The notes: a model not told the origin generated them from the letters alone. A DNA stretch of 32,000 nt from an uncultured Chloroflexia bacterium (GCA_963704755.1 OY969938.1:3060001-3092000); one strand, 5' to 3'; shown: positions 319-29,326, counted from the first letter of the stretch. Program-made: numbers and translations.

Positions 319-374
319 TGCTTTCAACCATGCCTATGATTACTAAATAGCGTCGCGCCATTTCCGTAGTTCCT

Positions 375-3502: not shown

Positions 3503-5594
3503 TTATTTAAAATCCTTATGGTTGTTGAGCACCAAAAAAAACTGGTCCACGATCTTTGGATCGAAATTCTTCCCGGATTGTTCACGTAGATAAGCCAGAA
3601 CCTTTTCTTCAGGCCAGGCCTTTCGGTAGGGACGGTCTGAACGGAGGGCGTCCCACACATCCACGATCGCGAACATGCGCGCCGCCAGGGGAATCTCTTC
3701 GGCTTTCAGGCCACGCGGGTACCCGGTTCCATCCCACTTTTCATGATGGCAATAAGGAATATCCAGCGCGGACCGTAAGTATTTGATGGGGTGCAACATT
3801 TCGAAAGCAATTTCAGGATGCCTGCGCATGATGATCCATTCCTCATCATTGAGGGGCCCGGGTTTCAACAAAATCGCATCCGGCACGCCTAATTTGCCAA
3901 GGTCATGCAACAATGCCCCCCGCCGTATCGCCACGATCCTTTCGCTGTCAAAGCCCAGTCGCTCTGCCAGGCGGATCGTCATTTCGGTAACCCGTTGTGT
4001 GTGACCTTCTGTTTCTTTATCCCGCAGATCCATCGCTCGCGACCAGCCATCGATGGTCGCATCATAGGCGATGCTCAAATCGATATTTGACCGCAGTAAA
4101 TTGTTATACATCCGGCTGTTGTCGATTGCGATGGATGCCTGCTCTGCCAGGGTCACAAAAAAGTCGATCCAATCCGGATCTGGGTCGAAAGAGTTCGCGC
4201 AAAAAAACTTCCAGAACCCCGACCGCATCGCCTTTGGAGATCAACGGCATGGCAAAATAGGTTTCAAACCCCTCTTTTGCCCACATCGCTTTGAATTCGG
4301 GCGTGACCTCTTGATATGTCAATCCTTTTGCGCGAACGAGGCTGCGCTCGATCACTGCTTTTTTATCGAGGCTTTTTCCCTTGCGAAGGTTCATGCCCTT
4401 GATCTCGCGGGTGACGAACCCACGCCCGGCAAAATATTCGAACGCAGACGAATTCGGTTGAGCAAGCAAAACGTCCACGGCATCCACTTTGAGTTGCGCA
4501 GCGACGTGTTCCACAAAGATGTTGAGGGTGGTTTTGAGGTCCATGCTGCTGTTGATGGCTAAATCGATATTGTGTAATGCTGAGATATGGGCGAGTTGCT
4601 TTTTAGCCAGTAACTGGTTGTGGTTGTTATCGATCGCAATGGCCAGGTTGTTGGCTAACGAGCCGATATCGCGTTCATCTTCTTCGGTGAAGGCGTTGGT
4701 TTCCTGGCTGAATAAACCGATCACGCCCAGCAGTGCATCTTCGCAACGAACGGACGTGAATAAAGCCGACTTGATGGATGGGTCAAGGTTGACCCAGTCA
4801 GGCTCTTTGGATGTGTCGCCAATATTAATGGTTTGGCCATTTTGAGCAACCAGGCCGGCCAAACCCTTTTTGTCGCCCGGATAGAAATCGAATTTTTCTT
4901 TGATATTCTTCGAAGTTTCTTCAGAGAACCCGACAGAGGACAGCAAATTCAATTTTTTCTGGCTGGCATCGAAGCTAAAATAATTCGCCGCTTGATATCC
5001 GGGGATTTCAATGATGGACCGTAAAATTAAATCGATCAGGTCCGGTAAGGATTTTATAGCATGCAAATTACTGCTTACCTGGTAAAGAGCGGCCAGTCGC
5101 TTATTGGATTTCTGCAATTGCATCATTTTATCTTCGAGTTTACGAATGAGGGTTTGGTTATACTCTTTATAAAACTCAGCTTTTGCTTCGTTTGTCTCTT
5201 CTTGAAGAGCAGGCCTCTTGATCTCCTGCTGCGTGAGAATTTCTTGCAATGTATCCCAAAAAGTATTTTCGTCGATAGGTTTTTCCAGAAAACGATCTGC
5301 ACCCAAACTCAAAGCGAATTTCTCATCTCTGACATCGTTGTAGGTGGCGGTTAAAAAGACAAAAGGAATTTGGCTGAGGAGTTCGTCGGCCTTCCAGGCG
5401 CGGCACAAGTTGAAGCCATCCATTCCCGGCATAAGTATGTCAGAAATGACCATGTCGGGCGGGTTTTTGCGGGCCAGGCTCAGCGCATCAATTCCATTTT
5501 CGGCCTTTTGCACCTGGTAACCATGGGTCTTCAGCATGACTTCCAGTAAATACAGATTTTGTGGAATGTCATCCACAATCAGCAACGTTTTCAT
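3503..5594 (-). pseudogene. REC-GAF-GAF-HD-GYP response regulator (c-di-GMP phosphodiesterase type), split by a 1-nt frameshift in an A7/T7 run at 4201-4207
   Basis: Track ORFs 4104..5690 and 3503..4228 are two halves of one gene. The upstream frame reads ...PLISKGDAVGVLEVF. After dropping one T of the run it continues CANSFDPDPDWIDFFVTLAEQASIAIDNSRMY, a typical GAF C-terminus. HD-GYP motifs follow: HDLGKLGVPD, HHEKWDGTGYPRGL. The likely start MKTLLIVDD at 5594 makes an ATGA overlap with the upstream CheY gene. 2092 nt minus 1 gives 697 codons. Confidence 0.8.
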
Positions 5595-5983
5595 AGCGAA
5601 GTATCCCTGGCAGCGCGAGCATCTAAAAATTCTTTGATCTGGAGGATGAAAGTATCCGGGTTGATCGGTTTCTCGATATATCCGGAACAACCGGCTTCCA
5701 GGGCTTGTTCGCGGTCCCCGGGCATGGCATAAGAAGTTATGGCAATAATCGGCGTTTTGGCCAATTCTTTATCCTTTTGTAATTCCCGTGTAACCGCATA
5801 GCCATCCATGATGGGAAGCTGGATATCCAACAGGATCAGATCCGGTTTTTCTGTTTGTACCAGGGTTATCCCTTCCAGCCCATTTCGCGCCTGGATGACC
5901 TGATAACCGTATTTCTCTAAAATAAAGGTAACCAGGTATATGTTTTGCGCGTTATCTTCGATAATAAGGATCTTAGTTTTCAT
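5591..5983 (-). CDS. Single-domain CheY-like response regulator receiver
   Basis: MKTKILIIEDN...PDLILLDIQLPIMDGY...IIAITSYAMPGD...GYIEKP shows the canonical Asp, Thr/Ser and Lys receiver positions. ATG at 5983 is preferred (the track uses GTG at 5992). It overlaps the kinase stop (5973) by 11 nt. Confidence 0.9.
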   Translation of the reverse strand: MKTKILIIEDNAQNIYLVTFILEKYGYQVIQARNGLEGITLVQTEKPDLILLDIQLPIMDGYAVTRELQKDKELAKTPIIAITSYAMPGDREQALEAGCSGYIEKPINPDTFILQIKEFLDARAARDTSL

Positions 5984-8354
5984 TTTTCCCACTTTTTAAT
6001 GGCAGATCAAAGGAAAAGGTACTGCCTTCTCCCCACTTGCTCTCGACTCGAATCTGGCCGCCCAGCAGCTCCACCAGCCGTTTGCAGATCGAAAGGCCCA
6101 GGCCAGTTCCTTCATATTGTCGAGAAATACCTGTATCGATTTGCTGGAATGGCTTAAACAAGATTTGCAGGTCTTCTGGTTTAATCCCGATGCCGGTATC
6201 GCTTACCTGCGTAACCAGACAGCCATTCTCTAGCTTGCATTCCAGGCGTACCTCGCCTTGTTCGGTGAATTTAACGGCATTATTAAGCAAATTGAGCAGA
6301 ATTTGCTCCACCCGGCGGCGGTCGCTGAAAATGTCAATTTTCTCGGGAGTAATCGAAGTCGAGATTTTGAGGTTCTTCATTTGCGCCATCGGGGTAATTT
6401 TATCCACGCTTTTGCGGATGGCGGTCCCCATATCGAACAATTCGGGAAAGACAACGACCTGCCCCGCCTCGATTTTCGAGATATCCAACACATCGTTAAT
6501 CAACTCGAGCAAATGAAGCGCGCTGCCCTTTACCATCGTCAGTTGCTTTTCCTGCTCTTCGTTTAGCGGGCCTACCAGTTTTTGCAGCAAGATGCCGGTG
6601 AAACCGATAATAGAATTCAGGGGAGTGCGCAGCTCGTGGGACATAGTGGCGAGGAACGCCGATTTAAGCCTGTCGGCGCTTTCTGCCCGGATTACCGCTG
6701 CTTTTAAATCTTCTACTTTTTTCCGAACGGTGATATCGGTGATTGTTCCCACAAACCCGATGACCTGGTTGTCAGAATTCACTTCGGGAACAGCCTGGCC
6801 GATTACCCAGGATATCGATCCATCCGGATGGACAAAACGATAGTCCGCTGTGGAAGTGGATTTTTGATGCGCGGATTCTTGCCAGTTTGTCGATAGGCGC
6901 TCGCGATCCTCCGGGTGGACCGCTTTGAGCCAACCGTTCCCGAGCGCTTCCTTCTCGCTTAGCCCGGAAATTTGACACCAGGTTGGGTTAACGTAAGTGG
7001 TAAGCCCTTCGCTATTTGTGTGAAAGATGCCCACCGGAGCGACGCTGGTCAGCGTTTGGTAGCGCTTTTCACTTTCGGACAACTGCTTCTCGGCTTGTTT
7101 GCGGGTGGTGATATCCCGAACAATGACAATAGCTTCGTCCTTTCCCGTGGGAGTGAAACGCGCTTCGTAATCCCGGTTTTCATCATCGAGCGGCAACGAA
7201 TATTCAATGGTTTGAATCTCATTAGATTCGATAGCGGTTTTGACATTATCCAGGGCGGTGTCTGACAAATTTTTGGGGAGTACATCCACTACATTTTTTC
7301 CAAGGTACTCCTCCGACAATGGGTGCAGGGAATTATTGAATGCGGAATGGTAATTGAGCAGAATGCCCTCTTTGCTCAAGCGCAAAATTTGGTCGGGGTT
7401 GTTTTCCAGCAAAGCTCGATTACGCGCTTCGCTCGCGCGCAGTCTGGCCGTTTGTTGGCGAATTTGCCTGCGGGCGGTAATGGAAATCACCAGCAAGAAA
7501 AGGATAATGATTGCGCTATTTATGAACAGTACGTAAACCCAGGCGGGAATAATATCGATGATTGTTTTTTGCTGTTTCGCTCCCAGGTATTGATCCAAAG
7601 CCTGGTAGTAGACCGAGTTGGGATCGCTCTTCAGGGCTTTCATATCCGCATCGATAGTTTGGACGAGATAAGGCGTCAATTCCGCGTCTTTGGGAAAGGC
7701 AAAGCGTAGGTTCATCGGTTGGATGAGAATGGAGGTCTTGACGACATCGAATTGATTTTCATAAAGATCGCCGAAATCTTTATTAATTACCCCAGCATCC
7801 ACTTCTTTGTTTTGCAGCGCGTTGAATATATCCAGATAGCTATCCAGTCCAACAAAGGTGGCTTGAATCCCAAGCTTTTCCGTCAGGTTTTTGATACCAT
7901 CCGGGCCATCGAAGTTGATGCTGCCGGTCAGCCCGCCAACTTTTTTGCCTTCCAAATCCAGGATTGTTTCGATGGATGACCCTTTGGTGACGTATAACCG
8001 TGACCAACTGGACAGCACGGTGTCGGATGAAAAAGCGAATTCCTGGCTCCGCTCTTCGGTCCAACCTGTATCAGGCAAAATATCGATCTGATTTGCCTGC
8101 AGCTTATTCATCACCTCGATCCATGTGCCGGGCACCCAGACGATTTCCCAATTTTCTTTTTGGGCAATGGACTTAATAATTTCAGGCCAAAACCCGGTAA
8201 CTTCCCCGCTGCTATCCGTATATATTTTTGGTGGATTTTCGTAAACGCCTACGCGGATCACTCTCCGTACTTGAGGCTGAGTCCAACCTTCCATACAAAG
8301 GCATGCGATCGAGAAAATCAGTAAAAACAAATTTCGCCGCATATTCATCCCCAT
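5973..8354 (-). CDS. Sensor histidine kinase with periplasmic solute-binding (SBP_bac_3-like) domain, TM, two PAS domains, HisKA and HATPase_c
   Basis: 793 aa. N-terminal hydrophobic signal/TM. SBP-like RVGVYENPPKIYTDSSGEVTGFWPEI...DILPDTGWTEERS. TM AWVYVLFINSAIIILFLLVISI. PAS regions. H-box MSHELRTPLNSI. N/G boxes LLNNAVKF, DTGIGI, GTGLGLSI. Confidence 0.9.
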   Translation of the reverse strand: MGMNMRRNLFLLIFSIACLCMEGWTQPQVRRVIRVGVYENPPKIYTDSSGEVTGFWPEIIKSIAQKENWEIVWVPGTWIEVMNKLQANQIDILPDTGWTEERSQEFAFSSDTVLSSWSRLYVTKGSSIETILDLEGKKVGGLTGSINFDGPDGIKNLTEKLGIQATFVGLDSYLDIFNALQNKEVDAGVINKDFGDLYENQFDVVKTSILIQPMNLRFAFPKDAELTPYLVQTIDADMKALKSDPNSVYYQALDQYLGAKQQKTIIDIIPAWVYVLFINSAIIILFLLVISITARRQIRQQTARLRASEARNRALLENNPDQILRLSKEGILLNYHSAFNNSLHPLSEEYLGKNVVDVLPKNLSDTALDNVKTAIESNEIQTIEYSLPLDDENRDYEARFTPTGKDEAIVIVRDITTRKQAEKQLSESEKRYQTLTSVAPVGIFHTNSEGLTTYVNPTWCQISGLSEKEALGNGWLKAVHPEDRERLSTNWQESAHQKSTSTADYRFVHPDGSISWVIGQAVPEVNSDNQVIGFVGTITDITVRKKVEDLKAAVIRAESADRLKSAFLATMSHELRTPLNSIIGFTGILLQKLVGPLNEEQEKQLTMVKGSALHLLELINDVLDISKIEAGQVVVFPELFDMGTAIRKSVDKITPMAQMKNLKISTSITPEKIDIFSDRRRVEQILLNLLNNAVKFTEQGEVRLECKLENGCLVTQVSDTGIGIKPEDLQILFKPFQQIDTGISRQYEGTGLGLSICKRLVELLGGQIRVESKWGEGSTFSFDLPLKSGKNEN

Positions 8355-8528
8355 GAATCCGGTTACTCAGTCAGTATGGAATTTACAAGAAATTGGCAGG
8401 ACGAGGGAAAGGGGTGATGGGCGATGCAGTGAAGCCGCCTGGCCGGCTTTGAAATACCTGCCTAAATCTCGACGTTCTTCAGTTACCCATCTGGTTTTGA
8501 GCTAAATAAATGTAACTACTCAAGCACA

Positions 8529-8588
8529 GGTAAGAAGCTTCCGAATTTGAGGTATTGGGCGGCAACTCCGCCAAACACTTCGAGTTCG
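8529..8588. repeat. Imperfect long hairpin, degenerate copy of the 31131-31197 hairpin family
   Basis: GGTAAGAAgctTCCGAATTTGAGGTATTGGGCGG-CAACT-CCGCCAAACACTTCGAGTTCG. The 21 stem positions have 2 mismatches and 3 pairs that are G-T only on the + strand. It shares GGTAAGAA..TCCGAATTTGAGGT and CTCCGC.AAACAC.TC.A.TTCG with 31131-31197. Confidence 0.65.
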
Positions 8589-8750
8589 ATGTTTTACCCA
8601 TTGGGCTGAACAGTTATTAATAGCCATGAATTTATTATACAACTTTGGTTTGGCGCCGAATAATTTCTACGATCATCGATTTTGTTAAGTTGTCCGCGGG
8701 CATTTACGAAATCGGATCGATAAATAAACTGCCAGGGAGAATGAGCCTGG

Positions 8751-9455
8751 TTAATCCCCCGTCTGCACATACTCCGCTTCATAGTACTTGCACCACTCCT
8801 TGACCGGGCAGTCAGGGCAATCCGGCTTGCGCGCATGGCAGACCTCACGGCCCAGGCGGATCAGATTCAAATGGGCCGGGCCGTATTCCTCGGGCGGGAA
8901 AAGCTGCGCCAGGTAGGCGTGGGCCTGCTCGACGTTCATTTTTTCGGGACGCAGGCCAATCCGCCCGCTGACCCGGTAGATGTGCGTATCCACCGGAAAG
9001 GCCGGCATACCCAGCGAGAACTGCAGCACGATGGCGGCGGTCTTCAGCCCGACCCCCTTGAAGCGGGTCAGCCAGGCGTGGGCTTCTTCGGCCGGCCATT
9101 CTTTGAGGAAGTTCAAATCTAACGAGCCGCGTTCATCCGTGATCTGGCGCAGCACTTCCTGGATGCGCGCGCCTTTCTGGTTGCCCAGCCCGGCCGGGCG
9201 GATGGCCTCGATCACCTCGGCCAGGGGTGCATCCCGCACTGCCTCCCAGGTAGGCAAGCGCCGCTTGAGGGCGTAAAAAGCTACGTCGCGGTTCCTGTCG
9301 TTGGTGTTCTGCGAGAGGATGGTGGAGACCAGCTCATCCAGGGCCGGCAGCGGCTCGCGCCATTCGGCGTAGCCAAATACTTCCAACAGTCGGTTGTGGA
9401 CGGCCAGCGCACGGCGCAGCAAGTCAGGATCAGGCGGTGTAAGGAGTTCGGGCAT
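8751..9455 (-). CDS. nth: Endonuclease III family DNA glycosylase (HhH-GPD with 4Fe-4S cluster loop)
   Basis: HhH-GPD core: LSQNTNDRN..., KGVGLKTAAIVL, PVDTHIYRV. Cluster motif C-x6-C-x2-C-x5-C (CHARKPDCPDCPVKEWC). ATG at 9455 with AAGGA 7 nt upstream is preferred over the track start at 9503. Confidence 0.85.
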   Translation of the reverse strand: MPELLTPPDPDLLRRALAVHNRLLEVFGYAEWREPLPALDELVSTILSQNTNDRNRDVAFYALKRRLPTWEAVRDAPLAEVIEAIRPAGLGNQKGARIQEVLRQITDERGSLDLNFLKEWPAEEAHAWLTRFKGVGLKTAAIVLQFSLGMPAFPVDTHIYRVSGRIGLRPEKMNVEQAHAYLAQLFPPEEYGPAHLNLIRLGREVCHARKPDCPDCPVKEWCKYYEAEYVQTGD

Positions 9456-13306: not shown

Positions 13307-13357
13307 CCGTTCTGAACCCCTCTCCCGCTTCTGGGAGAGGGGTTGGGGTGAGGGAGG
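13307..13357 (-). repeat. GC-rich palindromic repeat (CCTCACCCC..CCCCTCTCCC-loop-GGGAGAGGGG type), copy 1
   Basis: Hairpin CCCCTCTCCC (13317-13326) / GCTTCT / GGGAGAGGGG (13333-13342), followed by TTGGGGTGAGGGAGG. Near-identical to 13495-13546. Confidence 0.8.
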
Positions 13358-13494: not shown

Positions 13495-13546
13495 CCGTTC
13501 TGGGCCCCTCTCCCGTTTCTGGGAGAGGGGTTGGGGTAGGGGAGAG
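13495..13546 (-). repeat. GC-rich palindromic repeat, copy 2
   Basis: CCGTTCTGGGCCCCTCTCCC-GTTTCT-GGGAGAGGGGTTGGGGTAGGGGAGAG. Hairpin arms at 13505-13514 and 13521-13530. Confidence 0.8.
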
Positions 13547-13697: not shown

Positions 13698-13753
13698 GCT
13701 AATCGCTAACTGCTAAAAGCCAATCGCTAAAAGCTAATCGCTTAGCGCTAACA
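13698..13753. repeat. Tandem heptamer array, 8 units of GCTAATC-like sequence
   Basis: GCTAATC GCTAACT GCTAAAA GCCAATC GCTAAAA GCTAATC GCTTAGC GCTAACA, immediately 5' of the putative MarR promoter. Confidence 0.8.
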
Positions 13754-21576: not shown

Positions 21577-23022
21577 TTATACGCACTCGCTCAATACATT
21601 TTCGAACTGGCTCAAGGCGTCGTCGATCACTTCGTCGGTATCCGCCATGGAGGTGTACATACGCGAACCGGCCAGGGTGATCAACCCATTGGCCATGTAA
21701 GCCGCACCCATCTCTTCGATCATTTGCTTACGCGGCTTGAGCTCCCGCGCCAGGCGCAAGGGGTTGCGCAGGTCCAGCAGCATCACCCCCGAGGTCTCCA
21801 AATGGACGATCGAGCCCTGGTTGAAGGCTACAAAAGGCAACCCGTATTTATCGATGATGGCATTTAACCCACGGGTGAGCCGGTCCCCGGCCTGCCCGGC
21901 GATGACCGGGGCGTTGGTGCGCTCCATTTCACGCAAGGCATGGTAGCCGGCCACGCAAGAAAGCGGGTTGGCCGAAAGGGTGCCGCCCACGTAAGCGCGC
22001 TCACCGGTGCCGCCGATGCCGGCCGCAAAGCCCATGATCACCTCCCGCCGGCCGCCCACCCCGCCCGCCATCGGGTAGCCGCCGGTGACGCACTTGCCGA
22101 ACACGGTCAAGTCGGGTTTGACGCCGAAGTAGCCCTGGGCGCTGCCCATCCCCAGGCGGAAGCCGGTCACGACCTCATCGAAGATGAGCAGCGCGCCGAA
22201 TTCATCGCACAATTCACGGATCTTCTGGTTGAAATCAAACGGCACCGGCCGGGTACCGCTTTCCGGCCCAACCGGCTCGACGATGACCGCCGCCGTGCCC
22301 CCGCGCAGCCGGTTGAGTACCAGGTGGCGCTTCAAAGCGCTCAGGCTGTTGGGAAAAAACTCTTCGGTGGAGCCGCTGGCTCCCCGCGGAATGCCTTTCG
22401 ATTCCAGCCGGCCGGTACCGGGCACGTGCAGGCCGTAAACCATCTGGTCGCTCCAGCCATGGTAGGCCCCGCCGACCTTGATGACATATTTCTTTTTGGT
22501 GAACACCCGCGCCGCACGGATGGCGGCCATCACGCCCTCGGTCCCGGACCCCAACATGCGGAACATTTCAACCGCGGGCATGTATTGATTGATGAGCTGG
22601 GCCAGTTTTAGCTCGTATTCGTGGAACAGCCCGGTCACCGGGCCGCACGATTGCAGCATTTCGAAAACTTTTTCGCGCACCGGGGCGTAGTTGCTGCCCA
22701 GGACGGTTGGCCCACCGGCTTGCAGAAAGTCAATGTAGCGGTTGCCATCGGCATCCCACAGGTAGGCCCCCTCGGCTTTCTCGATGGCGATGGGGAAAGG
22801 ATAGTTGAAAGCCAGGTTATGCTGCACGCCGCCGGGGATAAACTGCTTGGCTTCATCGGTCAGTGCTTTCGAACGGGTGCATTTAGTTTCAAAGTAATCC
22901 AGGTAGGACTGCATTTTTTCGGGATGCACCGGCCGCAGCGGCTGGCGGACCAGCTTATCCAGCCTGGCGTAAACTTCTTTGACATCGGGATATTCGCTAA
23001 TGGCATATTTTTGATCGGTCAT
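21577..23022 (-). CDS. Class-III (GSA-aminomutase-like) PLP-dependent aminotransferase
   Basis: 481 aa. GSGTEGVMAAIRAAR, GGAYHGW, LIFDEVVTGFRLG, FGKCVTGGYPMAG (PLP-lysine context). Confidence 0.85.
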   Translation of the reverse strand: MTDQKYAISEYPDVKEVYARLDKLVRQPLRPVHPEKMQSYLDYFETKCTRSKALTDEAKQFIPGGVQHNLAFNYPFPIAIEKAEGAYLWDADGNRYIDFLQAGGPTVLGSNYAPVREKVFEMLQSCGPVTGLFHEYELKLAQLINQYMPAVEMFRMLGSGTEGVMAAIRAARVFTKKKYVIKVGGAYHGWSDQMVYGLHVPGTGRLESKGIPRGASGSTEEFFPNSLSALKRHLVLNRLRGGTAAVIVEPVGPESGTRPVPFDFNQKIRELCDEFGALLIFDEVVTGFRLGMGSAQGYFGVKPDLTVFGKCVTGGYPMAGGVGGRREVIMGFAAGIGGTGERAYVGGTLSANPLSCVAGYHALREMERTNAPVIAGQAGDRLTRGLNAIIDKYGLPFVAFNQGSIVHLETSGVMLLDLRNPLRLARELKPRKQMIEEMGAAYMANGLITLAGSRMYTSMADTDEVIDDALSQFENVLSECV

Positions 23023-23034
23023 GATGATCTCCTG

Positions 23035-23721
23035 CTATTCACCTTTTGTAGCCGGCAGGCCACTTTCGACATTTTTCTGGTCTTTGCGTAATTTGGAGAA
23101 GGCGATCTCGCGTACGGCCAGGGGGATTTTGCTCACTTTACGCTCGCTGCACAGCGCCAACAGGTAGGCCAGCGCGCACTTTTCCAGGACCTCGACGTTA
23201 TGCAAGGCACGCTCCATGTCGTCGCCAAACACCAGGGCGCCGTGGTTCTGCATCATAAAGGCATTGTTGTGATTTTTGACGTGTTTGGCCACTTGATTTT
23301 TGAGCATGCCCGTTCCCGACGGCGCGTAGGGGATGATTTCCACACTGCGACCCAAGAATCGCGCCTGTTCATCGAACAGGGCCGGGATGGGCGCCTTGAT
23401 CAGCGTCAATGCGCTGGTATAAACCTGGTGGGTGTGGATGATGGCGTTCACATCGCCGCGGACCTGGTAAATGGCGCAGTGCATGGCCGATTCAACCGAA
23501 GGCTTTAACTGACCTTCCAGCGGGTTCAGGTTGAAATCCAGTACACAGACGTCTTCAGGCGTCATTTTTAGATAATCGAAATCGGAGGGTGTTACAGCGA
23601 AGGCGTTCTGCCCGGGGATGCGCAGCGAGACATTTCCGCCCGTCGCCATGAGATAGCCTTTGGCTACCAATTGCTGGCACGAAGCTATAATTTGCTGTTT
23701 ATAGAGATCAAAGTTGCCCAT
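23035..23721 (-). CDS. Class II aldolase/adducin-family protein (fuculose-phosphate aldolase / ribulose-5-P epimerase-like)
   Basis: 228 aa. ATGGNVSLR, PSVESAMHCAIY, AIIHTHQVY, MQNHGALVFG. Lies 12 nt upstream of the aminotransferase gene. Confidence 0.85.
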   Translation of the reverse strand: MGNFDLYKQQIIASCQQLVAKGYLMATGGNVSLRIPGQNAFAVTPSDFDYLKMTPEDVCVLDFNLNPLEGQLKPSVESAMHCAIYQVRGDVNAIIHTHQVYTSALTLIKAPIPALFDEQARFLGRSVEIIPYAPSGTGMLKNQVAKHVKNHNNAFMMQNHGALVFGDDMERALHNVEVLEKCALAYLLALCSERKVSKIPLAVREIAFSKLRKDQKNVESGLPATKGE

Positions 23722-23789
23722 ATTGACCTGTTTTTAGAGGGAATTTTGGTGGGAGAGCCGGTAGTTAAGAAAACGATATACCCAAATCG

Positions 23790-23805
23790 GATAAGCGCGC
23801 TTATC
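23790..23805. promoter_or_regulatory. Perfect 16-bp palindrome, candidate operator in the divergent aldolase/TetR intergenic region
   Basis: GATAAGCGCGCTTATC. Confidence 0.45.
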
Positions 23806-23831
23806 TAGACACTGTAAAGATTCTAGAACAC

Positions 23832-23852
23832 AATCTTGACAATGTCAAGATT
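23832..23852. promoter_or_regulatory. Perfect 21-bp palindrome (10+1+10), candidate TetR operator overlapping the tetR promoter
   Basis: AATCTTGACA-A-TGTCAAGATT. It covers the TTGACA -35 hexamer and ends 19 nt before the tetR ATG. Confidence 0.6.
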
Positions 23853-23864
23853 TAACAATAAGAT
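23836..23864 (+). promoter_or_regulatory. Candidate promoter of the TetR gene, predicting a leaderless mRNA
   Basis: TTGACA (23836-23841), 17-nt spacer, TAAGAT (23859-23864). The ATG at 23871 sits 7 nt after the -10 and has no Shine-Dalgarno. Confidence 0.45.
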
Positions 23865-23870
23865 TGGTCC

Positions 23871-24506
23871 ATGCCCGGCCAAAAATACCATCATGGGGAT
23901 TTGAAAAACGCGCTGATTAAAGCCGGGATAGAAATATTGTCCAGGGAAGGTGTAGGCGCGCTCAGCCTGCGCAAAGTGGCCCAACGGGCGGGGGTGAGTC
24001 ACGCCGCGCCATACGCGCATTTTACCGATAAGCAGGCCCTGATCGCAGCCATATCCACCGAGGGCTACCGGATGCTCTATGAAAAGCTGGAGACCGCCCG
24101 GCAGCGCTACGCGGGCGATCCGCTGCGCCAACTGGTGGAAGCGGCCTGGGCGTACACCCGTTTTGCCCTGGATGACCCCGACCATTTCAAGATCACTTTT
24201 TCGGGGTCGGTGGAAAAAGAGAAAGATTACCCGGCCTTTGTGGAAATGTCGCAGAAGAGTTTTGCCCTGGTGACGGAATTGGTAGGCAACTGCCAGGAAG
24301 CCGGCATTCTCGAGGCCGGGCCATTGGACGCGATGACGGTCAGCGTATGGAGCCTGGTGCACGGGTATGTGTCGCTGCTGCTCGAAAGCCAGATATCTCA
24401 CACCCTCACCGAGCGAATGTCGGTGCGTGAGATGTTAATTTTTGTCTTGAGCCGCATGACGATCCGAGAGATCCCGGCCGAATTTCGGCTTCCGCCAACC
24501 TCGTAG
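23871..24506 (+). CDS. TetR/AcrR family transcriptional regulator
   Basis: 211 aa. N-terminal HTH: HGDLKNALIKAGIEILSREGVGALSLRKVAQRAGVSHAAPYAHF. The TAG stop (24504-24506) lies inside repeat copy A. Confidence 0.9.
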   Translation: MPGQKYHHGDLKNALIKAGIEILSREGVGALSLRKVAQRAGVSHAAPYAHFTDKQALIAAISTEGYRMLYEKLETARQRYAGDPLRQLVEAAWAYTRFALDDPDHFKITFSGSVEKEKDYPAFVEMSQKSFALVTELVGNCQEAGILEAGPLDAMTVSVWSLVHGYVSLLLESQISHTLTERMSVREMLIFVLSRMTIREIPAEFRLPPTS

Positions 24507-24640
24507 CCCGGCTTTCAAAGCCGGGAATACGTTCGGCCTATGCATCTCCGCGGTTGACAACCGGTGCTTCGTTACCCAACCGGCAGCTGAAGCTGCACCT
24601 ACGAAAGCACAAAGACCCACCCGCGTGGGTCTCTCTTTTG
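24504..24640 (+). repeat. 137-nt structured module, copy A
   Basis: (G)TAG + CCCGGCTTT-C-AAAGCCGGG (24507-24525); invariant core GCATCTCCGCGGTTGACAACCGGTGCTTCGTTACCCAACCGGCAGCT; GCAGCTGAAGCTGC; GACCCAC-CCGC-GTGGGTC (24614-24631) + TCTCTTTTG. Confidence 0.9.
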
Positions 24641-24704
24641 CCGAAGCCTGATTCCCAGCAGTGGGATCAGGCCCGCCGAATAATTCCCCTCACCCCGGCC
24701 CTCT

Positions 24705-24738
24705 CCCAGCGGCCGAGGCTGGGCTTCGTGTTTTTGTT
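24705..24738 (+). terminator. Terminator-like hairpin plus T-run in the linker between copies A and B
   Basis: CCCAGC-GGCCGAG-GCTGGG followed by CTTCGTGTTTTTGTT. The positional equivalent at 27951-27982 has a different stem. Confidence 0.45.
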
Positions 24739-24784
24739 GCTGCGACCTCGGTCGCGGGCAGCGCCGCCCGGTCCTGTAGTCCTG

Positions 24785-24921
24785 TAGCCCGGCTTTCAAA
24801 GCCGGGTAAACGTTCGGCCTATGCATCTCCGCGGTTGACAACCGGTGCTTCGTTACCCAACCGGCAGCTGAAGCTGCACCTACAAATACACAAAGACCCA
24901 CGAAAGTGGGTCTCCTTTTCG
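24785..24921 (+). repeat. 137-nt structured module, copy B
   Basis: Same architecture as copy A. Terminal hairpin GACCCAC-GAAA-GTGGGTC (24895-24912) + TCCTTTTCG. Linker ACAAATACAC replaces ACGAAAGCAC. Confidence 0.9.
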
Positions 24922-24992
24922 ACCAGGCCTGATTCCATAGACGAAACGGGGCGGATGATTGCCCTCACCCCTTCCCTGCCTTTTCACCTACC

Positions 24993-25036
24993 GGGTTGTT
25001 GAAGCAAACGGCGTATGCCGTTTGCTTCAACAACCC
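24993..25036. terminator. 20-bp perfect-stem hairpin 14 nt downstream of the lipoprotein gene stop
   Basis: GGGTTGTTGAAGCAAACGGC / GTAT / GCCGTTTGCTTCAACAACCC. On the transcribed (-) strand the T-run precedes the stem rather than following it, so it is not a canonical terminator. Confidence 0.4.
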
Positions 25037-25049
25037 AAAAATATTCAGA

Positions 25050-25970
25050 TCAAGCCGGTGGCTGGACCTGGTCACCGCTGGGGCTGACCAGGAACCATTT
25101 GCCGGAAACGCCCTCGCCGTTGGTATCGCCAGGCTTGGTATCGCTGGCAAAGTGATACAGCGGCCAGCCATTATAGGTGACCTGGGTGCTGCCGTCGGCG
25201 CGAGTGATGGTGCCCAGCATGGTGCTATCCGCCTGACCACCCGCAGCAGGCGAGCCGCTGACCGTCAGTGGCGGCCAGTTCTGCGCACAGGTATCCGCGC
25301 AGGTGCTGGTGTTGGGGGAATCACTGGCGAAGAGGTACAGGCTCATCCCGGCCGAGTCGACCAGGAAGGTTCCCAGGTCGCTCGAACTGGTCATGACGGT
25401 GGGCGTGGTAGTGGCCATCGTCGTGGCCTCAGCGGTGGGCATGCTGGTCGATCCGCTGGCCGGCGCAGCAGCCGTCCCGCCGGCCGCCTCGACTTTTTCG
25501 CCTGCGGGGGAAATGGCAAACCACACCCCGTTTTTACCCTCACCATTGGTATCGCCAGGTTGGCTGTCGCCCGCAAAATAATACAGCGGCCAGCCGTTAT
25601 AGGTCACCTGGGTGCTGCCATCGCTGCGGGTAGTGGTGCCCAGCCGGCTGGCGTCCGCGCCGGTATCGGCCATGGCTGCACCGGTGGTCAGCAGCGGCGG
25701 CCAGTTTTGCGCACAGGTATCGGTGCAGGTGCTGGTGTTAGGCGTATCGTTGGTGTACAGGTAAAGGGTCATCCCTTTTGAATCGACCAGGATGGTTCCC
25801 AATTGGGCGTTCAAGGTGGACATCAGTGCGACCTGGCCTGTTCCGCTGGTCGCGCTGGCTTCTGGCATAGCGGTTGGCACGACCGTGGCGGTAGCCGTAG
25901 CCGGCGCGCTGCAGGCTGCCAGGGCCATTGCCAGAATGAACAAGGTAGAATATAGGATTTTTGGTTTCAT
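25050..25970 (-). CDS. Secreted lipoprotein with two copies of a conserved ~100-aa repeat (resembles the PF03640/COG4315 secreted repeat family)
   Basis: ATG at 25970 with AGGAG 5 nt upstream; the track start at 26177 is rejected. Signal peptide and lipobox MKPKILYSTLFILAMALAAC. Internal duplication: LGT(I/F)LVDS.GM.LYL...D.PNTSTC.DTCAQNWPPL ... DGSTQVTYNGWPLY.FA.D..PGDTNGEG. Confidence 0.75.
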   Translation of the reverse strand: MKPKILYSTLFILAMALAACSAPATATATVVPTAMPEASATSGTGQVALMSTLNAQLGTILVDSKGMTLYLYTNDTPNTSTCTDTCAQNWPPLLTTGAAMADTGADASRLGTTTRSDGSTQVTYNGWPLYYFAGDSQPGDTNGEGKNGVWFAISPAGEKVEAAGGTAAAPASGSTSMPTAEATTMATTTPTVMTSSSDLGTFLVDSAGMSLYLFASDSPNTSTCADTCAQNWPPLTVSGSPAAGGQADSTMLGTITRADGSTQVTYNGWPLYHFASDTKPGDTNGEGVSGKWFLVSPSGDQVQPPA

Positions 25971-26056
25971 CTTTTCTCCTAAGGCGTTCAAGGTTTGACG
26001 TACATATAAAGAAATACGCCAGGAGAAGCCAAATTGGATGTTCTTTATCTTTATTA

Positions 26057-26109
26057 TTTTGAATGTTTTGTTGTGGACGGTTTCACTGCCCACAACAAAA
26101 CATTCAAAA
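26057..26109. other. 20-bp perfect-stem hairpin in the AT-rich spacer between the anti-sigma and lipoprotein genes
   Basis: TTTTGAATGTTTTGTTGTGG (26057-26076) / 13-nt loop / CCACAACAAAACATTCAAAA (26090-26109). The right arm contains the anti-sigma stop codon (26104-26106). Confidence 0.7.
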
Positions 26110-26841
26110 ATCCACCTTAAGTACCCTGGATCCGGTTGGACCCGGGCTGCCCCCGGCCGGCTCATCGGTGACCCCAATCCCTACGTAATCGCCAACCGCG
26201 CCGCTGATTTGGAAAGGTACGGTGGTATATAACTGCCCCGGTGTGGGCTGGAATAACCCGGCGCTGGTACGCTGGCCTTGTGCGTTGACCAGCCAGATCT
26301 GGTAGGTGCGGTTTGTGGGTAAGTCCGGCAGGTTCCACAGGATCAAGGCAGCCACATTGCGTTCGCGGTCCAGCAGCAGGCTGCCGGCCAGGTTATCCCC
26401 CTCGACTGGCAGCGATTCGGTGCTGGGATAGGCCAGCATGGCCATGGCCGTTTGGCCGGTTTGCAGTTGGGCCGCCAGGGCGGTCTGCTGGCGTTCGACG
26501 ATGCGCAGGGCAGCCAGAGTATAGAAGTTCGCCACCAATAAAGCGATAAATACTACCCCCAAGGCGATCTGGCCGGTGGAAATCTGCCAGCCCGGCTTGA
26601 ACAGGTTGGGCGTGGGACGAATGCTGCGAACCAACTGGCGGCGCAGGCGAGCGGGCGGCTGGCGTGGGGGAACGGCTTCCAACAGGCCCAGGCTGAGGCT
26701 GCGGTATTCAGTCAGCTCTCGCTGGCAGTCCGCACAGGATTGCAGGTGCTCTTTCAGCGCTGTGGTTTCATCTACATCCAAAGCGCCGATAGCAAAAGCG
26801 GCCAGATTTTCACGAAACGGTGTACAGCGCTCTGCTCCCAT
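26104..26841 (-). CDS. Anti-sigma factor: zf-HC2 N-terminal domain, one TM, RskA-like extracytoplasmic domain
   Basis: 245 aa. HLQSCADC (HxxxCxxC). TM GQIALGVVFIALLVANFYTLAAL. C-terminal YQIWLVNAQGQRTSAGLF...GVTDEPAGGS resembles the anti-sigma-K RskA C-domain. Confidence 0.8.
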   Translation of the reverse strand: MGAERCTPFRENLAAFAIGALDVDETTALKEHLQSCADCQRELTEYRSLSLGLLEAVPPRQPPARLRRQLVRSIRPTPNLFKPGWQISTGQIALGVVFIALLVANFYTLAALRIVERQQTALAAQLQTGQTAMAMLAYPSTESLPVEGDNLAGSLLLDRERNVAALILWNLPDLPTNRTYQIWLVNAQGQRTSAGLFQPTPGQLYTTVPFQISGAVGDYVGIGVTDEPAGGSPGPTGSRVLKVDF

Positions 26842-26896
26842 CCACTCACTCCCTCCAATAATTAATACGTTGCCGCTTGCCCATTTGGATTAACCC

Positions 26897-27454
26897 TTAC
26901 TCGTCTTTCAGCCAGACCTGGCGCAGCGTGTCCATGGCCGTGCGCAGGCGGGTTTTGACCGTGCCTAACGGCCAGCCCAGCGTTTCGGCAATTTCGCGCT
27001 GGCTGAGTCCCTGGAAATAAGCCAGTTCGAGCACCTGGCGGTGCTCATTGGACAGGTTTTGCAGGCACAACGACAGGCTGCGCCAGCGCAATTCCTCGGC
27101 CAGCGAAGCGCCATCCGGAATGGTTTGCCAGATATTCTCGGGGTCGTCGCCGCCAGAAAGAGCCGGCCGGCGATTTTCCAGGCGCAGCCGGTCGAGGGCG
27201 GTATTGCGGGTGATCACCAGCAGCCAACCCAGCAGCGGACCGCGTTCGGCCAGGTACTGGCGCGAGCAACTCCACAATTTGAGAAAAGTATCCTGGGTCA
27301 CTTCTTCGGCCAGCATGTTATCCGCCAGGATCTTGTAGGCCAGTCCGAAGACCCGGCTGGCATAGCGGTCGTACAACGCCAGAAAGGCACGCTGGTCGCC
27401 GCGTGCGATCTTTCCCGCCAGGTCCTGATCGGATGGATAATCTGACAATGTCAC
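26897..27454 (-). CDS. ECF (group IV) sigma-70 family RNA polymerase sigma factor
   Basis: Region 2 (FLALYDRYASRVFGLAYKIL...AEEVTQDTFLKLW) and region 4 (VLELAYFQGLSQREIAETLGWPLGTVKTRLRTAM). The track start is GTG at 27454. TTG at 27448 fits the AAGGAG at 27454-27459 better. Confidence 0.9.
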   Translation of the reverse strand: MTLSDYPSDQDLAGKIARGDQRAFLALYDRYASRVFGLAYKILADNMLAEEVTQDTFLKLWSCSRQYLAERGPLLGWLLVITRNTALDRLRLENRRPALSGGDDPENIWQTIPDGASLAEELRWRSLSLCLQNLSNEHRQVLELAYFQGLSQREIAETLGWPLGTVKTRLRTAMDTLRQVWLKDE

Positions 27455-27547
27455 TCCTTATGATTTATTATAAGGGACTGCGGGGTAATTCTATAAGAGG
27501 TTCCCAAATCTGGGATATTTGCGGTCGAAACCACATGCCTGACCGGG

Positions 27548-27722
27548 GCAAAGAATCCCCCCAACCCCCCTTGCGGAGGATGTGAAGAACATTCAGACAC
27601 GCTTTCATTGCCATGAATTACCCGGTTTTCACGAATTGGTCGCGTATCGGTAATTCTTCACATCCTCCAAGGGGGGAATGTGTTTCTTGCCCCCCCTTTC
27701 GAAAGAGGGGGGGATTCTTTGC
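27548..27722. repeat. Nested inverted repeat with C6/C6/G6/C7/G7 homopolymer runs, upstream of the ECF sigma gene
   Basis: Left arm GCAAAGAATCCCCCCAACCCCCCTTGCGGAGGATGTGAAGAA (27548-27589). Right arm TTCTTCACATCCTCCAAGGGGGG...GGGGGGGATTCTTTGC (27654-27722) carries an extra internal hairpin CCCCCCCTTTC/GAAAGAGGGGGGG. The arms flank a 64-bp AT-richer core. Confidence 0.75.
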
Positions 27723-27745
27723 GTTCGCCAGGACAGGCTGCAAGG

Positions 27746-27883
27746 TTTCCCGGCTTTCAAAGCCGGGGATACGTTTGGCCTCTGCATCTCCGCGGTTGAC
27801 AACCGGTGCTTCGTTACCCAACCGGCAGCTAAAGCTGCACCTACGAAAGCACAAAGACCCACCTGCGTGGGTCTCCCTTTTGG
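27746..27883 (+). repeat. 137-nt structured module, copy C
   Basis: Head is GTTT instead of GTAG. Palindrome at 27749-27767. Identical 47-nt core. GCAGCTAAAGCTGC. GACCCAC-CTGC-GTGGGTC (27856-27873) + TCCCTTTTGG. Confidence 0.9.
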
Positions 27884-27950
27884 CGAAGCTTAAATCCGTA
27901 GCCGAAAACAGACTTGGCAGGCCGGACAATTACCCCCACCCCATCCCTGA

Positions 27951-27982
27951 GCCCGGCCTACGCCGGGCTTTGTGTTTTTGTT
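27951..27982 (+). terminator. Terminator-like hairpin plus T-run in the linker between copies C and D
   Basis: GCCCGGC-CTAC-GCCGGGC followed by TTTGTGTTTTTGTT. Confidence 0.45.
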
Positions 27983-28020
27983 GCTGCGACCTCGGTCGCC
28001 GGCAGCGCCGCCCGGTTCCG

Positions 28021-28158
28021 TAGCCCGGCTTTCAAAGCCGGGGATACGTTTGGCCTATGCATCTCCGCGGTTGACAACCGGTGCTTCGTTACCCAACCGG
28101 CAGCTAAAGCTGCACCTACGAAAGCACAAAGACCCACCTGCGTGGGTCTTCTTTTTAG
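28021..28158 (+). repeat. 137-nt structured module, copy D
   Basis: GTAG head (28020-28023). Same core. GACCCAC-CTGC-GTGGGTC (28131-28148) + TTCTTTTTAG. Confidence 0.9.
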
Positions 28159-28348: not shown

Positions 28349-29326
28349 TTACCTGCATCCTTTGGCCAATAAAACCAAAACCCGGGTGCTCCAATCGACT
28401 TTGCGCTGCAGCGGATGGCGCCAATCGACCGAAAGAGGGAAATAATAACCCTGCGGATCCCGCGGACCCAGGTCCCACAGGCCGTCGGGCCGGCACTGCG
28501 CCCAGAGCCAGGCCAGAGCCGGCCCGGCGGCCTCGCGGAAACTACGGAAACGGGCCAGGGTCTCCAGTGATTGCAGCCACAGTTCCAGACGGGTGGCAGT
28601 CAACGATGCCGGCCGGGTTGCGAGGGGCACGCCCATATAGCCCAATCCCTCGCGGCGTTCCCAGGCCCAGCGGACGATGGCGGCATCCAGGTCCGCGGAC
28701 AGGCACTCCGGCCGGGCCGAAAGCAGCCAGAGGGTGTATTTATTTTTCATCAAGAAGAACTGCGGGCCAAACAGCACTCCGCTGCTCAGTTCACGCAGGG
28801 CTTCGACTTCACGTTGAAGATGGTAAACACCCCCGCTGAAGATGTGTTCTGCAGCCGCCAGCCAGGCGCTGTGCAGCTCGTCCAGGGCCAGATGATATGG
28901 CGAAACACAGGCCAGGGTCCCGGCGGTGATGGTACTCATCACCAGTGGCCAGCGCGGATTCTTCTCGGCCGGGTCGCTCCACTGGCACTCGCCTCGCAGT
29001 ACCCCGGCCATAAACGCAGTCGCCCGCCGCAATGGATCGGCCTCCTGGTCCAGTCCCAGCGCCAGCAGGCGCTGGATGGCCCATTCGCTGGTGAGCACCG
29101 GGCCGGGGTGAGCCGAATCGCGCGAATGAAATCGTCCCCACGAGCCATCCGGCTGCTGAACAGCGCTTATTGGAGTCACTTGTGGTGCCTGCGAGACGTC
29201 AGCCGGACCGGTTGGCAGCAATCGCACTTCGCGTTGCAAGCGTGCCTTAACCAGCGGTTCGCTGCATACTGCCAGCACGTGCATGGCCGCCTGGTTTATT
29301 TCCCCTGCGTCAGGAAGATCGAACAT
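28349..29326 (-). CDS. Hypothetical protein (325 aa), Trp/Leu/Ala-rich, possibly an alpha-helical repeat (alpha/alpha-toroid-like) fold
   Basis: Long ORF with ATG at 29326 and a purine-rich stretch upstream. Codon usage looks like neighbouring genes. Recurrent xPDGxWG/WD motifs (QQPDGSWGRF, RPDGLWDLG) recall prenyltransferase/terpene-cyclase-type repeats. No firm family assignment. Confidence 0.6.
   Translation of the reverse strand: MFDLPDAGEINQAAMHVLAVCSEPLVKARLQREVRLLPTGPADVSQAPQVTPISAVQQPDGSWGRFHSRDSAHPGPVLTSEWAIQRLLALGLDQEADPLRRATAFMAGVLRGECQWSDPAEKNPRWPLVMSTITAGTLACVSPYHLALDELHSAWLAAAEHIFSGGVYHLQREVEALRELSSGVLFGPQFFLMKNKYTLWLLSARPECLSADLDAAIVRWAWERREGLGYMGVPLATRPASLTATRLELWLQSLETLARFRSFREAAGPALAWLWAQCRPDGLWDLGPRDPQGYYFPLSVDWRHPLQRKVDWSTRVLVLLAKGCR

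Follow-up and report, generated by a model that had tools for sequence, protein, structure and literature searches.

Pneumococcal BOX and Neisseria Correia elements are multi-part intergenic repeats of ~100 to 200 nt in which hairpin modules occur in variable combinations, and mosaic repeats of this type can carry terminators or promoters. Correia elements possess terminal inverted repeats (TIRs) and a TA duplication, and BOX elements have no GTAG tags. The modules described here are comparable to both as modular intergenic mosaics but have no sequence relationship with either. GTAG REPs are already known in Chloroflexi, where those of GTAG-23 in Thermomicrobium roseum are clustered in blocks, and typical REP sites immediately follow a stop codon or separate convergent or unidirectional genes (PMC3733652). 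In E. coli, REPs are imperfect palindromes, and a mismatch in the stem is required for binding by TnpA-REP (PMC3333891). The spacers of REPINs keep their length and no two are identical in sequence; they have been described as less conserved, not as unrelated (PMC3337134).

The window, i.e., the whole 32-kb stretch of DNA analyzed, contains four direct copies (A to D) of a 138-nt module on the plus strand, arranged as two tandem pairs (A/B and C/D) around an operon encoding an ECF sigma factor, an anti-sigma factor, and a lipoprotein (Table 1). Start-to-start spacings are 281, 2961, and 275 nt. A previous sequence-only reading had described four near-identical copies in two tandem pairs, and this was borne out by alignment and by a search with a 32-nt core pattern that tolerated as many as 3 mismatches and returned 4 matches against 0 expected. 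The copies are thus real, but their starts had been placed one base late, as is evident from the positions of GTAG (or GTTT) and the adjoining palindrome in Table 1. Pairwise identity over 138 nt ranges from 88 to 96%, and copies are most alike within a pair (99% over 126 nt by blastn for D and C). As that reading had also noted, substitutions are confined to loops and linkers: none of the 19 variable columns of the alignment falls within the 56 stem positions (hypergeometric P of 2e-5, a value to be read with the caution that columns are not independent events and that counting by events gives ~1e-2 to 1e-3). The junctions leading from the TetR gene into A and from B through the operon into C are supported by independent short-read contigs of run ERR11571143, and the contigs of this run break at the invariant block. 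Three open reading frames (ORFs) run through the module, and no Pfam match was obtained for any ORF across the modules.

Table 1. Positions of the modules, their parts, and the surrounding genes in the window
Feature	Position	Strand	Description
Module A	24503-24640	+	138 nt; GTAG overlaps TetR stop codon TAG at 24504-24506
Module B	24784-24921	+	Most diverged copy, 88-91% identity to the others; terminal loop GAAA
Module C	27745-27882	+	Head GTTT in place of GTAG
Module D	28020-28157	+	Identity to C 95.7% over 138 nt
REP1	24503-24525	+	GTAG tag and perfect palindrome CCCGGCTTT-C-AAAGCCGGG, 9-bp stem
REP1, other copies	24784-24806; 27745-27767 (tag GTTT); 28020-28042	+	Tag and palindrome
REP2	24583-24602	-	GTAG-GT-GCAGCTtcAGCTGC; 6-bp stem, 2-nt loop
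REP2, other copies	24864-24883; 27825-27844; 28100-28119	-	
Invariant block, 48 nt	24541-24588	+	Contains palindrome CGGTTGaCAACCG (24551-24563)
Invariant block, other copies	24822-24869; 27783-27830; 28058-28105	+	Identical in all four
Terminal hairpin GACCCAC-N4-GTGGGTC	24614-24640		T tract 3' on plus strand, TTTGTGCTTTCG 3' on minus strand
Terminal hairpin, other copies	24895-24921; 27856-27882; 28131-28157		
Linker unit U(+), A-B	24705-24761	+	Hairpin CCCAGC/GCTGGG, then TTCGTGTTTTTGTTG, then palindrome CTGCGACCTCGGTCGCGGGCAG with GTTG tag
Linker unit U(+), C-D	27950-28005	+	Hairpin AGCCCGGC/GCCGGGCT
8-nt tandem duplication	24772-24787	+	TCCTGTAG-TCCTGTAG at module B tag; read directly
Post-core motif CGRATRATTnCCCYCACCCCnnCCCT (~28 nt)	24677-24702	+	After A
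Post-core motif, other copies	24949-24977; 27920-27948		After B; after C
TetR/AcrR gene	23871-24506	+	Stop codon inside module A GTAG
Bracketed operon	25050-27448	-	Three genes
SigK-like ECF sigma gene	26897-27448	-	Probable TTG start
RskA-type anti-sigma gene	26104-26841	-	
Lipoprotein_15/SCO0930-type lipoprotein gene	25050-25971	-	Probable ATG start

Each module carries two tagged palindromes. REP1 reads GTAG-CCCGGCTTTCAAAGCCGGG on the plus strand of the module, and REP2 reads GTAG-GT-GCAGCTnnAGCTGC on the minus strand, so that CTAC follows GCAGCTnnAGCTGC in the plus-strand view. Together they form, in every module, a head-to-head dimer with the tags outside and a spacer of 57 nt. The two palindromes are unrelated to each other in sequence, and each is perfect in every one of the four copies; the unpaired GTAG at the foot is present in three of the four copies of REP1 and in all four of REP2. 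The suggestion of a REP, made from GTAG and the palindrome that follows it, consequently holds and is stronger than was seen at the time, when the minus-strand REP2 had been missed. It had also been objected that a 137-nt unit is far larger than a REP. With the second GTAG-tagged palindrome, this seemingly oversized unit resolves into a head-to-head dimer of REPs of 23 nt (REP1) and 20 nt (REP2), within the 20- to 40-nt REP range, plus a terminator-like hairpin. Throughout the window, GTAG ties as the commonest tetranucleotide 0 to 2 nt 5' of perfect hairpins, occurring there 10 times against a mean of 2.5, with 7 of the 10 inside modules; in related genomes, it preceded hairpins 0, 0, and 1 times in 44 kb.

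The modules resemble the GTAG REP families of Di Nocera et al. (2013, PMC3733652) in having short palindromes with 6- to 9-bp stems and 1- to 2-nt loops, an unpaired GTAG at one foot, head-to-head dimers 20 to 100 bp apart, clusters of dimers reiterated in tandem with flanking DNA, and a location after coding regions and between convergent or unidirectional genes; those families, too, are often species-specific, and some of their units adjoin unrelated stem-loops. The modules differ from them in their unrelated dimer partners, in the local invariance of the 48-nt spacer, and in the terminator-like third hairpin as an integral part. E. coli BIMEs (Ton-Hoang et al. 2012, PMC3333891) likewise combine a REP, an inverted REP, and a linker in tandem arrays, with GTAG 5' of the foot, and at REP2 the CC/TAC context (GCACC-TACG) is similar to that of the iREP type II cleavage site (PMC3333891). 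The inverse orientation, 57-nt linker, and tandem reiteration of the BIME layout are all present in the modules, but the y and z REPs of BIMEs are versions of a single sequence, unlike the unrelated REP1 and REP2, and the module stems are perfect in every copy, at odds with the stem mismatch of E. coli REPs. Inverted-unit doublets with a spacer of constant length and varying sequence, tandem arrays as the commonest higher-order arrangement, and vertical, lineage-specific inheritance are features shared with REPINs (Bertels and Rainey 2011, PMC3116915, PMC3337134). In a REPIN, however, a single REP is present in two copies that form one long hairpin, whereas REP1 and REP2 differ; inverted similarity is limited to the linker unit and the module's 3' part, and it is weak (64 to 68% identity).

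Beyond the dimer, the modules end in a hairpin whose stem is invariant and whose loops are CCGC (A), GAAA (B), CTGC (C), and CTGC (D), in agreement with the earlier description. With a T tract 3' of its stem on the plus strand and TTTGTGCTTTCG 3' of it on the minus strand, this GC-rich terminal hairpin looks like a bidirectional intrinsic terminator. A consensus terminator scan flagged it in A and D on the plus strand and in B on the minus strand, together with both linker hairpins. The identical block between the palindromes, initially given as 47 nt, was measured at 48 nt and is indeed invariant in A to D: none of about 11 substitution events falls within it, against ~4 expected. Invariance is nevertheless a property of this locus, not of the family, as the block is replaced by another sequence or missing in copies elsewhere in the genome. 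At least eight further copies are read through by four spurious ORFs (P0121 to P0124) on the same 4,871,623-nt contig of the 4.87-Mb genome, a count that is a lower bound because only copies with an ORF call across them contribute to it. Additional copies in the genome, which had been proposed as the mark of a dispersed element, are thus present. They keep REP1, REP2, the terminal hairpin, and the linker motif, and back-translation suggests that the peptides of most are compatible with GTAG tags, while their middle block is either different at equal length or absent. No copy was detected in GTDB species genomes, JGI metagenomes, viral contigs, plasmids, or phages.

Placement of the modules is extragenic. 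Pair A/B lies between the convergent TetR (+) and lipoprotein (-) genes and is sense to TetR; pair C/D lies between the unidirectional ORF at 28349-29326 (-) and sigma gene (-) and is antisense to both. The TetR ORF ends within the GTAG of module A, which had correctly been said to provide its TAG stop, and the TetR C terminus is of normal length compared to 11 homologues. The TetR loci of relatives are without both modules and operon; synteny is lost there, so this absence says little.

With the anatomy of the modules, their dispersal within the genome and absence elsewhere, and the constraint on stems and local spacer established, we read them as a lineage-specific REP/BIME-like mosaic repeat, probably serving as a terminator or insulator, and give this reading a probability of about 0.6. 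As a family, they look most like genome-specific, clustered, extragenic GTAG-tagged palindromic repeats of the REP/BIME type that incorporate terminator hairpins and belong to an Anaerolineaceae (Chloroflexota) chromosome, i.e., bacterial repeats of an ordinary kind whose form is unusually elaborate and previously undescribed. In favor of this reading are the two GTAG-tagged perfect palindromes per module with tags outside, the placement after a stop codon and between convergent or unidirectional genes as for typical REPs (PMC3733652), the same-genome copies that appear to keep hairpins and tags while the middle varies, and the terminator-like features on both strands along with one compensatory linker change and no variable stem column. 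Against it stand the lack in the window of a PF01797-like Y1 HUH (RAYT) transposase gene, which in REP-RAYT systems is flanked by the same REPs, dimer palindromes that are unrelated, unlike the identical or similar REPs paired in BIMEs and REPINs, perfect stems as opposed to the mismatch needed by E. coli TnpA-REP (PMC3333891), a number of extra copies that is only a lower bound, and a constraint on the 48-nt spacer that is unexpectedly strong for a mere spacer. The family could have spread through a Y1/HUH RAYT-type enzyme that recognizes its hairpins in single-stranded DNA, with recombination as the fallback explanation. The four local copies may have arisen via local tandem amplification or gene conversion, which would account for their identical 48-nt spacer. 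A/B would act as bidirectional transcription terminators and 3'-end stabilizers between TetR and the convergent lipoprotein gene, and C/D would have the same role between the upstream ORF and the sigma operon. As direct repeats of 131 to 141 bp with 95 to 97% identity lying 3.2 kb apart, the modules could also mediate RecA-dependent loss or duplication of the operon.

We also considered that the modules are genes or 3'-untranslated segments of a structured small RNA, in which three hairpins and an intrinsic terminator would make up the scaffold, with the 48-nt block acting as a functional region (seed or binding) peculiar to this locus. Folding of the plus strand is more favorable than that of shuffled sequences (z of -4.0), the terminator-like end lies on this strand, substitutions avoid both stems and block, and two P0124 copies imply by back-translation GCAGTT/AGCTGC, a G-U-compatible change. 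Taken as a whole, this is nonetheless unlikely. A search of the window against Rfam gave no match at gathering thresholds, consistent with the initial impression that no named RNA family is present, and at E<=10 only noise on the modules (COG3860 RNA, E of 9.5). No promoter-like site occurs upstream of or inside any module, and conservation begins exactly at GTAG, the sequence upstream being unrelated. The two pairs are oriented oppositely relative to flanking transcription, the only long-range helix (GUGCUUCGU/ACGAAAGCAC) is broken in B by three uncompensated changes, and the parts conserved across the family are short perfect palindromes whose GTAG tags lie on opposite strands. Database searches found no homologue in any other genome. 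These observations weigh against the discrete RNA gene that had been suggested earlier. It is improbable, too, that the 48-nt block is a payload, i.e., a protein-binding or promoter cassette that the REP-like hairpins carry to both sides of the operon, with CGGTTGaCAACCG as an operator or GGGTAAC-N17-CCGC as a minus-strand ECF-type promoter. The latter resembles, by eye, GGGAAC-N16-CCGC upstream of the sigma gene, and its orientation would aim C and D toward that gene, but this resemblance is a weak one, and promoters in A and B would be directed antisense into TetR. Similarly, the CGGTTGaCAACCG palindrome occurs only in the modules and the block is free of changes, but the operator-like palindrome of the TetR gene itself, TCTTGACAaTGTCAAGA, is different. 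Other members are missing the block, and the family is therefore not built around it.

That the modules are non-autonomous transposable elements (MITEs or IS200/IS605-derived PATEs), mobilized by an IS-encoded transposase elsewhere, would fit copies dispersed in one genome, a hairpin at each end, and short-read assemblies that break at modules. This proposal, put forward in the sequence-only reading, is quite doubtful: the left (CCCGGCTTT) and right (GACCCAC) hairpins are unrelated, module ends have neither TIRs nor a target-site duplication, and in other copies the interior is not conserved but missing or exchanged for another. Moreover, the elements occur in modular tandem arrays, no plasmid or phage match was obtained, and the window contains no transposase, as had been observed before. 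A local segmental duplication flanking the operon, without any repeat family, would explain the private block common to A to D and the greater likeness within pairs, but it is very improbable because P0121 to P0124, elsewhere in the same chromosome, share the hairpins, tags, and linker motif with other middles.

The linkers within the pairs are themselves repeated (24710-24782 versus 27954-28026, 89%), and a whole unit of ~275 to 281 nt is reiterated in tandem. Relative to the A-B linker, the hairpin of the C-D linker has one compensatory change, from A-T to G-C. The linker unit (hairpin, T-rich stretch, and tagged palindrome) is a diverged inverted counterpart of the modules' 3' part; U(+) and U(-) share 64 to 68% identity, and the inverted similarity is significant (p of 0.001 to 0.05). 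With this oppositely oriented unit in the linkers, B and D lie within imperfect inverted doublets of ~200 nt, and long-range pairing was seen in the fold of copy B only. A hybrid unit in P0122, comprising the GACCCAC hairpin, TTTGCGTTTTTGTTG, and CAGCGACCTCGGTCGCC, connects the linker unit with the module's 3' part. The post-core motif occurs after every module except D. Finally, part of the difference between the 281- and 275-nt periods is explained by the 8-nt duplication at the module B tag.

Four 138-nt direct repeats, modules A to D, lie on the plus strand in two pairs that flank the minus-strand ECF sigma/anti-sigma/lipoprotein operon. They are real and well defined, and they represent a new, unusual composite build within a known class of bacterial repeats. 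The best fit is to GTAG-tagged extragenic palindromes that occur in clusters and form a family specific to the lineage. The sequence-only reading had located all four copies, with starts placed one base too late. By direct reading, each module opens with a tag followed by the palindrome CCCGGCTTTCAAAGCCGGG (REP1). A 32-nt core pattern matched four times in the window (0 expected), identity among the copies was 88 to 96% over 138 nt, and a block of 48 nt was invariant among them. The 56 stem positions contained not one of the 19 variable columns, in keeping with the earlier remark that substitutions avoid the stems; the hypergeometric P of 2e-5 overstates this, since adjacent columns are non-independent, and counting ~11 events gives roughly 1e-2 to 1e-3. 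As had also been proposed, the TAG within module A's GTAG is the stop codon of the TetR gene, whose length is normal compared with 11 homologues. The module junctions are not assembly artefacts, since they are independently covered by two short-read contigs of run ERR11571143, taken from the same population; both contigs end within modules.

Coordinates of the modules and other features (window positions)
Feature	Position	Strand	Description
Module A	24503 (start)	plus	tag GTAG
Module B	24784 (start)	plus	tag GTAG
Module C	27745 (start)	plus	tag GTTT
Module D	28020 (start)	plus	tag GTAG
Tandem duplication	24772-24787		8 nt, TCCTGTAG-TCCTGTAG, exactly at module B's GTAG tag
Short-read contigs	22472-24532; 24872-27778		run ERR11571143
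Nested inverted repeat	27548-27722		~175 nt, between module C and sigma gene start
Long perfect hairpin	24990-25039		just past lipoprotein stop
Long perfect hairpin	26057-26109		within 132-nt gap from anti-sigma stop to lipoprotein start
Sigma ORF, mechanical	26897-27454	minus	most likely start TTG 27448
Lipoprotein ORF, mechanical	25050-26177	minus	most likely start ATG 25971
Perfect palindrome	23825-23850		TCTTGACAaTGTCAAGA, between aldolase and TetR genes
Direct repeat	43-112; 260-329		70 nt, 79% identity
Tagged perfect palindrome	88-107	minus	GTAG-T-GGACCGG-C-CCGGTCC
Hairpin repeat	13307-13356; 13495-13544		50 nt, 90% identity
Short tandem arrays	375-436; 13698-13750		intergenic
Low-GC stretch	3500-9000		GC 0.44-0.51 vs about 0.6 elsewhere

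One GTAG-tagged palindrome per module had been noticed; the palindrome is present, and the actual count is two. In all four copies a small hairpin, GCAGCTnnAGCTGC, is followed by AC-CTAC on the plus strand and thus reads GTAG-GT-GCAGCTnnAGCTGC on the minus strand (REP2), so that each module is a head-to-head pair of tagged palindromes, with the tags outside and a 57-nt spacer. The pair is followed by a hairpin, GACCCAC-N4-GTGGGTC, with a plus-strand T tract and a minus-strand TTTGTGCTTTCG, and a consensus scan rates this hairpin terminator-like on both strands. The linkers between A and B and between C and D are repeated as well (89% over 73 nt), and each contains a GC hairpin, TT(C/T)GTGTTTTTGTTG and a GTTG-tagged palindrome, CTGCGACCTCGGTCGCnGGCAG. 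This is the layout of the minus strand of the module 3′ part, to which the linkers show modest but significant inverted similarity (p 0.001-0.05), strongest with copy B. A compensatory A-T to G-C change distinguishes the two linker hairpins. A post-core motif of ~28 nt containing CCCTCACCCC is present 3′ of A, B and C; this flank was judged by a score test, as global identity is uninformative here, shuffles scoring equally high. The 8-nt duplication at module B's tag may have been left by cleavage and rejoining at the tag or, alternatively, by slippage. When linkers, post-core motif and duplication are counted with the modules, the repeating unit is ~275-281 nt, present 1.6 times per site.

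TetR homologues place the window in the Anaerolineaceae, the best named matches being Leptolinea tardivitalis (77%) and an Anaerolineaceae MAG (79%). Since three reading frames are open through the module, its translations were searched against protein databases. A word-indexed search returned only P0121, P0122 and P0123, and a full HMMER search of 1.84 billion representatives recovered P0121 again and added P0124 and one unrelated tandem-repeat ORF. P0121 to P0124 are spurious ORFs, all four of them singletons, and lie on the same 4,871,623-nt contig as the exact TetR protein. Mapped onto the window's frames, they read through at least eight further copies, in which REP1, REP2, the terminal hairpin and the linker motif are kept; both GTAG tags are compatible with most of these copies, and P0121 also keeps the post-core region. 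The middle block is replaced in P0121 by other sequence of equal length, is partly related to the window's block in P0123, and is missing from P0122 and from the third copy of P0124. The ORF P0124 reads across three units that recur about every 175 nt. Hairpins and tags therefore define the repeat family, being kept while the middle block changes, and the 48-nt block is private to the window's locus. In P0122, a hybrid unit joins the GACCCAC hairpin to a linker-type tail, which makes the linker unit and the module 3′ part one family. P0125, a 375-aa ORF from ENA on a 2.48-Mb contig of another organism, was rejected as a member, as it matched weakly and solely via LHLHQQNDPP-like repeats; it consists of about five tandem ~80-aa repeats (…VLWLHLHQQNDPPLFPAKW…), and an unrelated tandem DNA repeat probably gave rise to it as a spurious ORF.

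Exact searches returned no match to an invariant-block 22-mer in 185,579 species genomes, JGI metagenomes and viral contigs, to GTAG plus REP1 in the same species genomes, or to the REP2-to-terminal-hairpin pattern in JGI metagenomes. Plasmids and phages gave no blastn match to the unit. In the relatives' TetR loci L002-L007, no core copy was found by nhmmer or blastn. Downstream of TetR, relatives have other genes and no module, and in 44 kb of related genomes GTAG-tagged hairpins were not in excess (0, 0 and 1 vs 10 in the window). The window contains no tRNA or tmRNA, and no sizeable ORF in it carries a transposase domain, as the sequence-only reading had stated. Its view that this is not a named RNA family also held, Rfam giving nothing at gathering thresholds and noise alone at E<=10. 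Module sequence strings had no match in a literature text search.

To our knowledge, what is known of REP/BIME/REPIN biology comes almost wholly from Proteobacteria. The modules resemble surveyed REPs in tag, palindrome size, head-to-head dimers, tandem reiteration, location and lineage specificity. Published surveys describe REPs as 20-40-nt stem-loops with an unpaired GTAG, commonly in head-to-head dimers 20-100 bp apart, often reiterated in tandem along with flanking DNA, and located mostly after genes, between convergent or unidirectional ORFs; families are often species-specific, some adjoin unrelated stem-loops, and one is known in Chloroflexi, in Thermomicrobium roseum (PMC3733652). REPIN spacers keep their length while no two are identical in sequence, and tandem arrays are common (PMC3337134). 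The earlier REP lead was thus sound as to the GTAG-tagged palindrome and the further copies in the same genome. [quoted passage not shown] Because of these two differences, and with the copy number a lower bound, we call the modules REP/BIME-like rather than members of a RAYT-REP system. Judged from sequence, layout and the further copies, they would work like a REP/BIME cluster.

Small RNA genes, the structured-RNA option of the sequence-only reading, are a weak alternative: the modules fold well (z -4.0) and include a terminator, yet no promoter was found at them, pairs A/B and C/D are oppositely oriented relative to neighbouring transcription, the sole long helix is broken in copy B, and what is conserved at family level is tagged palindromes on both strands. 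The suggested MITE or PATE identity fails, as there are no TIRs and no TSD, the ends are dissimilar and the interior is variable. A purely local duplication is contradicted by the copies in P0121 to P0124. The complete invariance of the 48-nt block would be explained if it were cargo, either through CGGTTGaCAACCG, a palindrome resembling an operator, or through an ECF-like minus-strand -35/-10, but the motif resemblance is weak. That a REP-type scaffold carries locus-specific ~48-nt cargo, or alternatively that these are new genome-specific structured RNAs with a variable internal segment, seems improbable to us; a more specific role via the invariant block or an RNA product is likewise doubtful, at long odds. 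If the cargo reading were true, both flanks of the ECF sigma operon would have received, for example, a binding site or ECF-dependent promoter; the repeat family would spread regulatory or insulating cassettes, and its direct-repeat pairs would allow the operon to be excised or amplified as a unit.

Several other identities were considered and rejected. An attC/integron cassette site would be an imperfect palindrome over its whole length, with R/L boxes, which the module is not; its flanking hairpins are unlike each other, arguing against a CRISPR-like repeat-spacer; no RT, IS110 or TnpB gene is adjacent, as for a retron, bridge RNA or omega RNA; as to a small protein gene, the three open frames have no consistent start or stop and no Pfam match; and the palindrome at the TetR promoter differs from that of the module, unlike in a TetR operator array.

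The modules would probably act as bidirectional terminators and 3′-end protectors, A/B serving TetR and the convergent lipoprotein operon, and C/D acting as an insulator that separates the upstream ORF and the sigma operon. Local tandem amplification and conversion most likely produced the four copies found here, since within-pair copies are most alike and a private spacer is common to all four. The direct repeats (131-141 bp, 95-97% identity, 3.2 kb apart) are candidate substrates adequate for homologous recombination, with operon deletion or duplication as the predicted outcome, and hence candidate sites at which a stress-response sigma operon may be lost or amplified. In practice, short-read assemblies break at the modules of this locus, a stop codon is supplied by one of them, and the repeats give rise to spurious ORF calls (P0121-P0124). 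An Anaerolineae composite family with two different GTAG-tagged palindromes and a bidirectional terminator would widen the known range and architecture of REP-type elements, and offers a concrete substrate for the question of RAYT-type enzymes in Chloroflexota, while altering no major open question.

Further features surround the operon. The nested inverted repeat has outer arms GCAAAGAATCCCCCC/GGGGGGATTCTTTGC and inner arms GGAGGATGTGAAGAA/TTCTTCACATCCTCC, folds at -95 kcal/mol (z -7.8), and could be a MITE-like insertion or an ECF operon leader structure. The lipoprotein gene lies between the two long perfect hairpins, whose stems are about 19 bp; no clear T tract comes after either of them on the minus strand. 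The mechanical starts of the sigma and lipoprotein ORFs are probably too long; the most likely sigma start has AAGGAG 5 nt upstream and agrees with the 183-aa gene on L008, where the lipoprotein has 306 aa. The perfect palindrome upstream of TetR overlaps divergent TTGACA -35 boxes and probably serves as the TetR operator; it has no relation to the palindrome of the modules.

Elsewhere in the window, the tagged perfect palindrome within the first copy of the 70-nt direct repeat suggests a second tagged-palindrome family in this genome. The 50-nt repeat consists of a hairpin, CCCCTCTCCC...GGGAGAGGGG, and then GGGGTGAGGG, a tail whose reverse complement is the CCCTCACCCC motif seen 3′ of modules A to C. 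The short tandem arrays comprise CACCTGA/CACTTGA heptamers and GCTAATCGCTAA-type units. The low-GC stretch, which may have been horizontally acquired, holds two-component genes, encoding a sensor kinase (SBP_bac_3 and PAS domains), a pair of response regulators, of which one has GAF, and an HD-domain protein.
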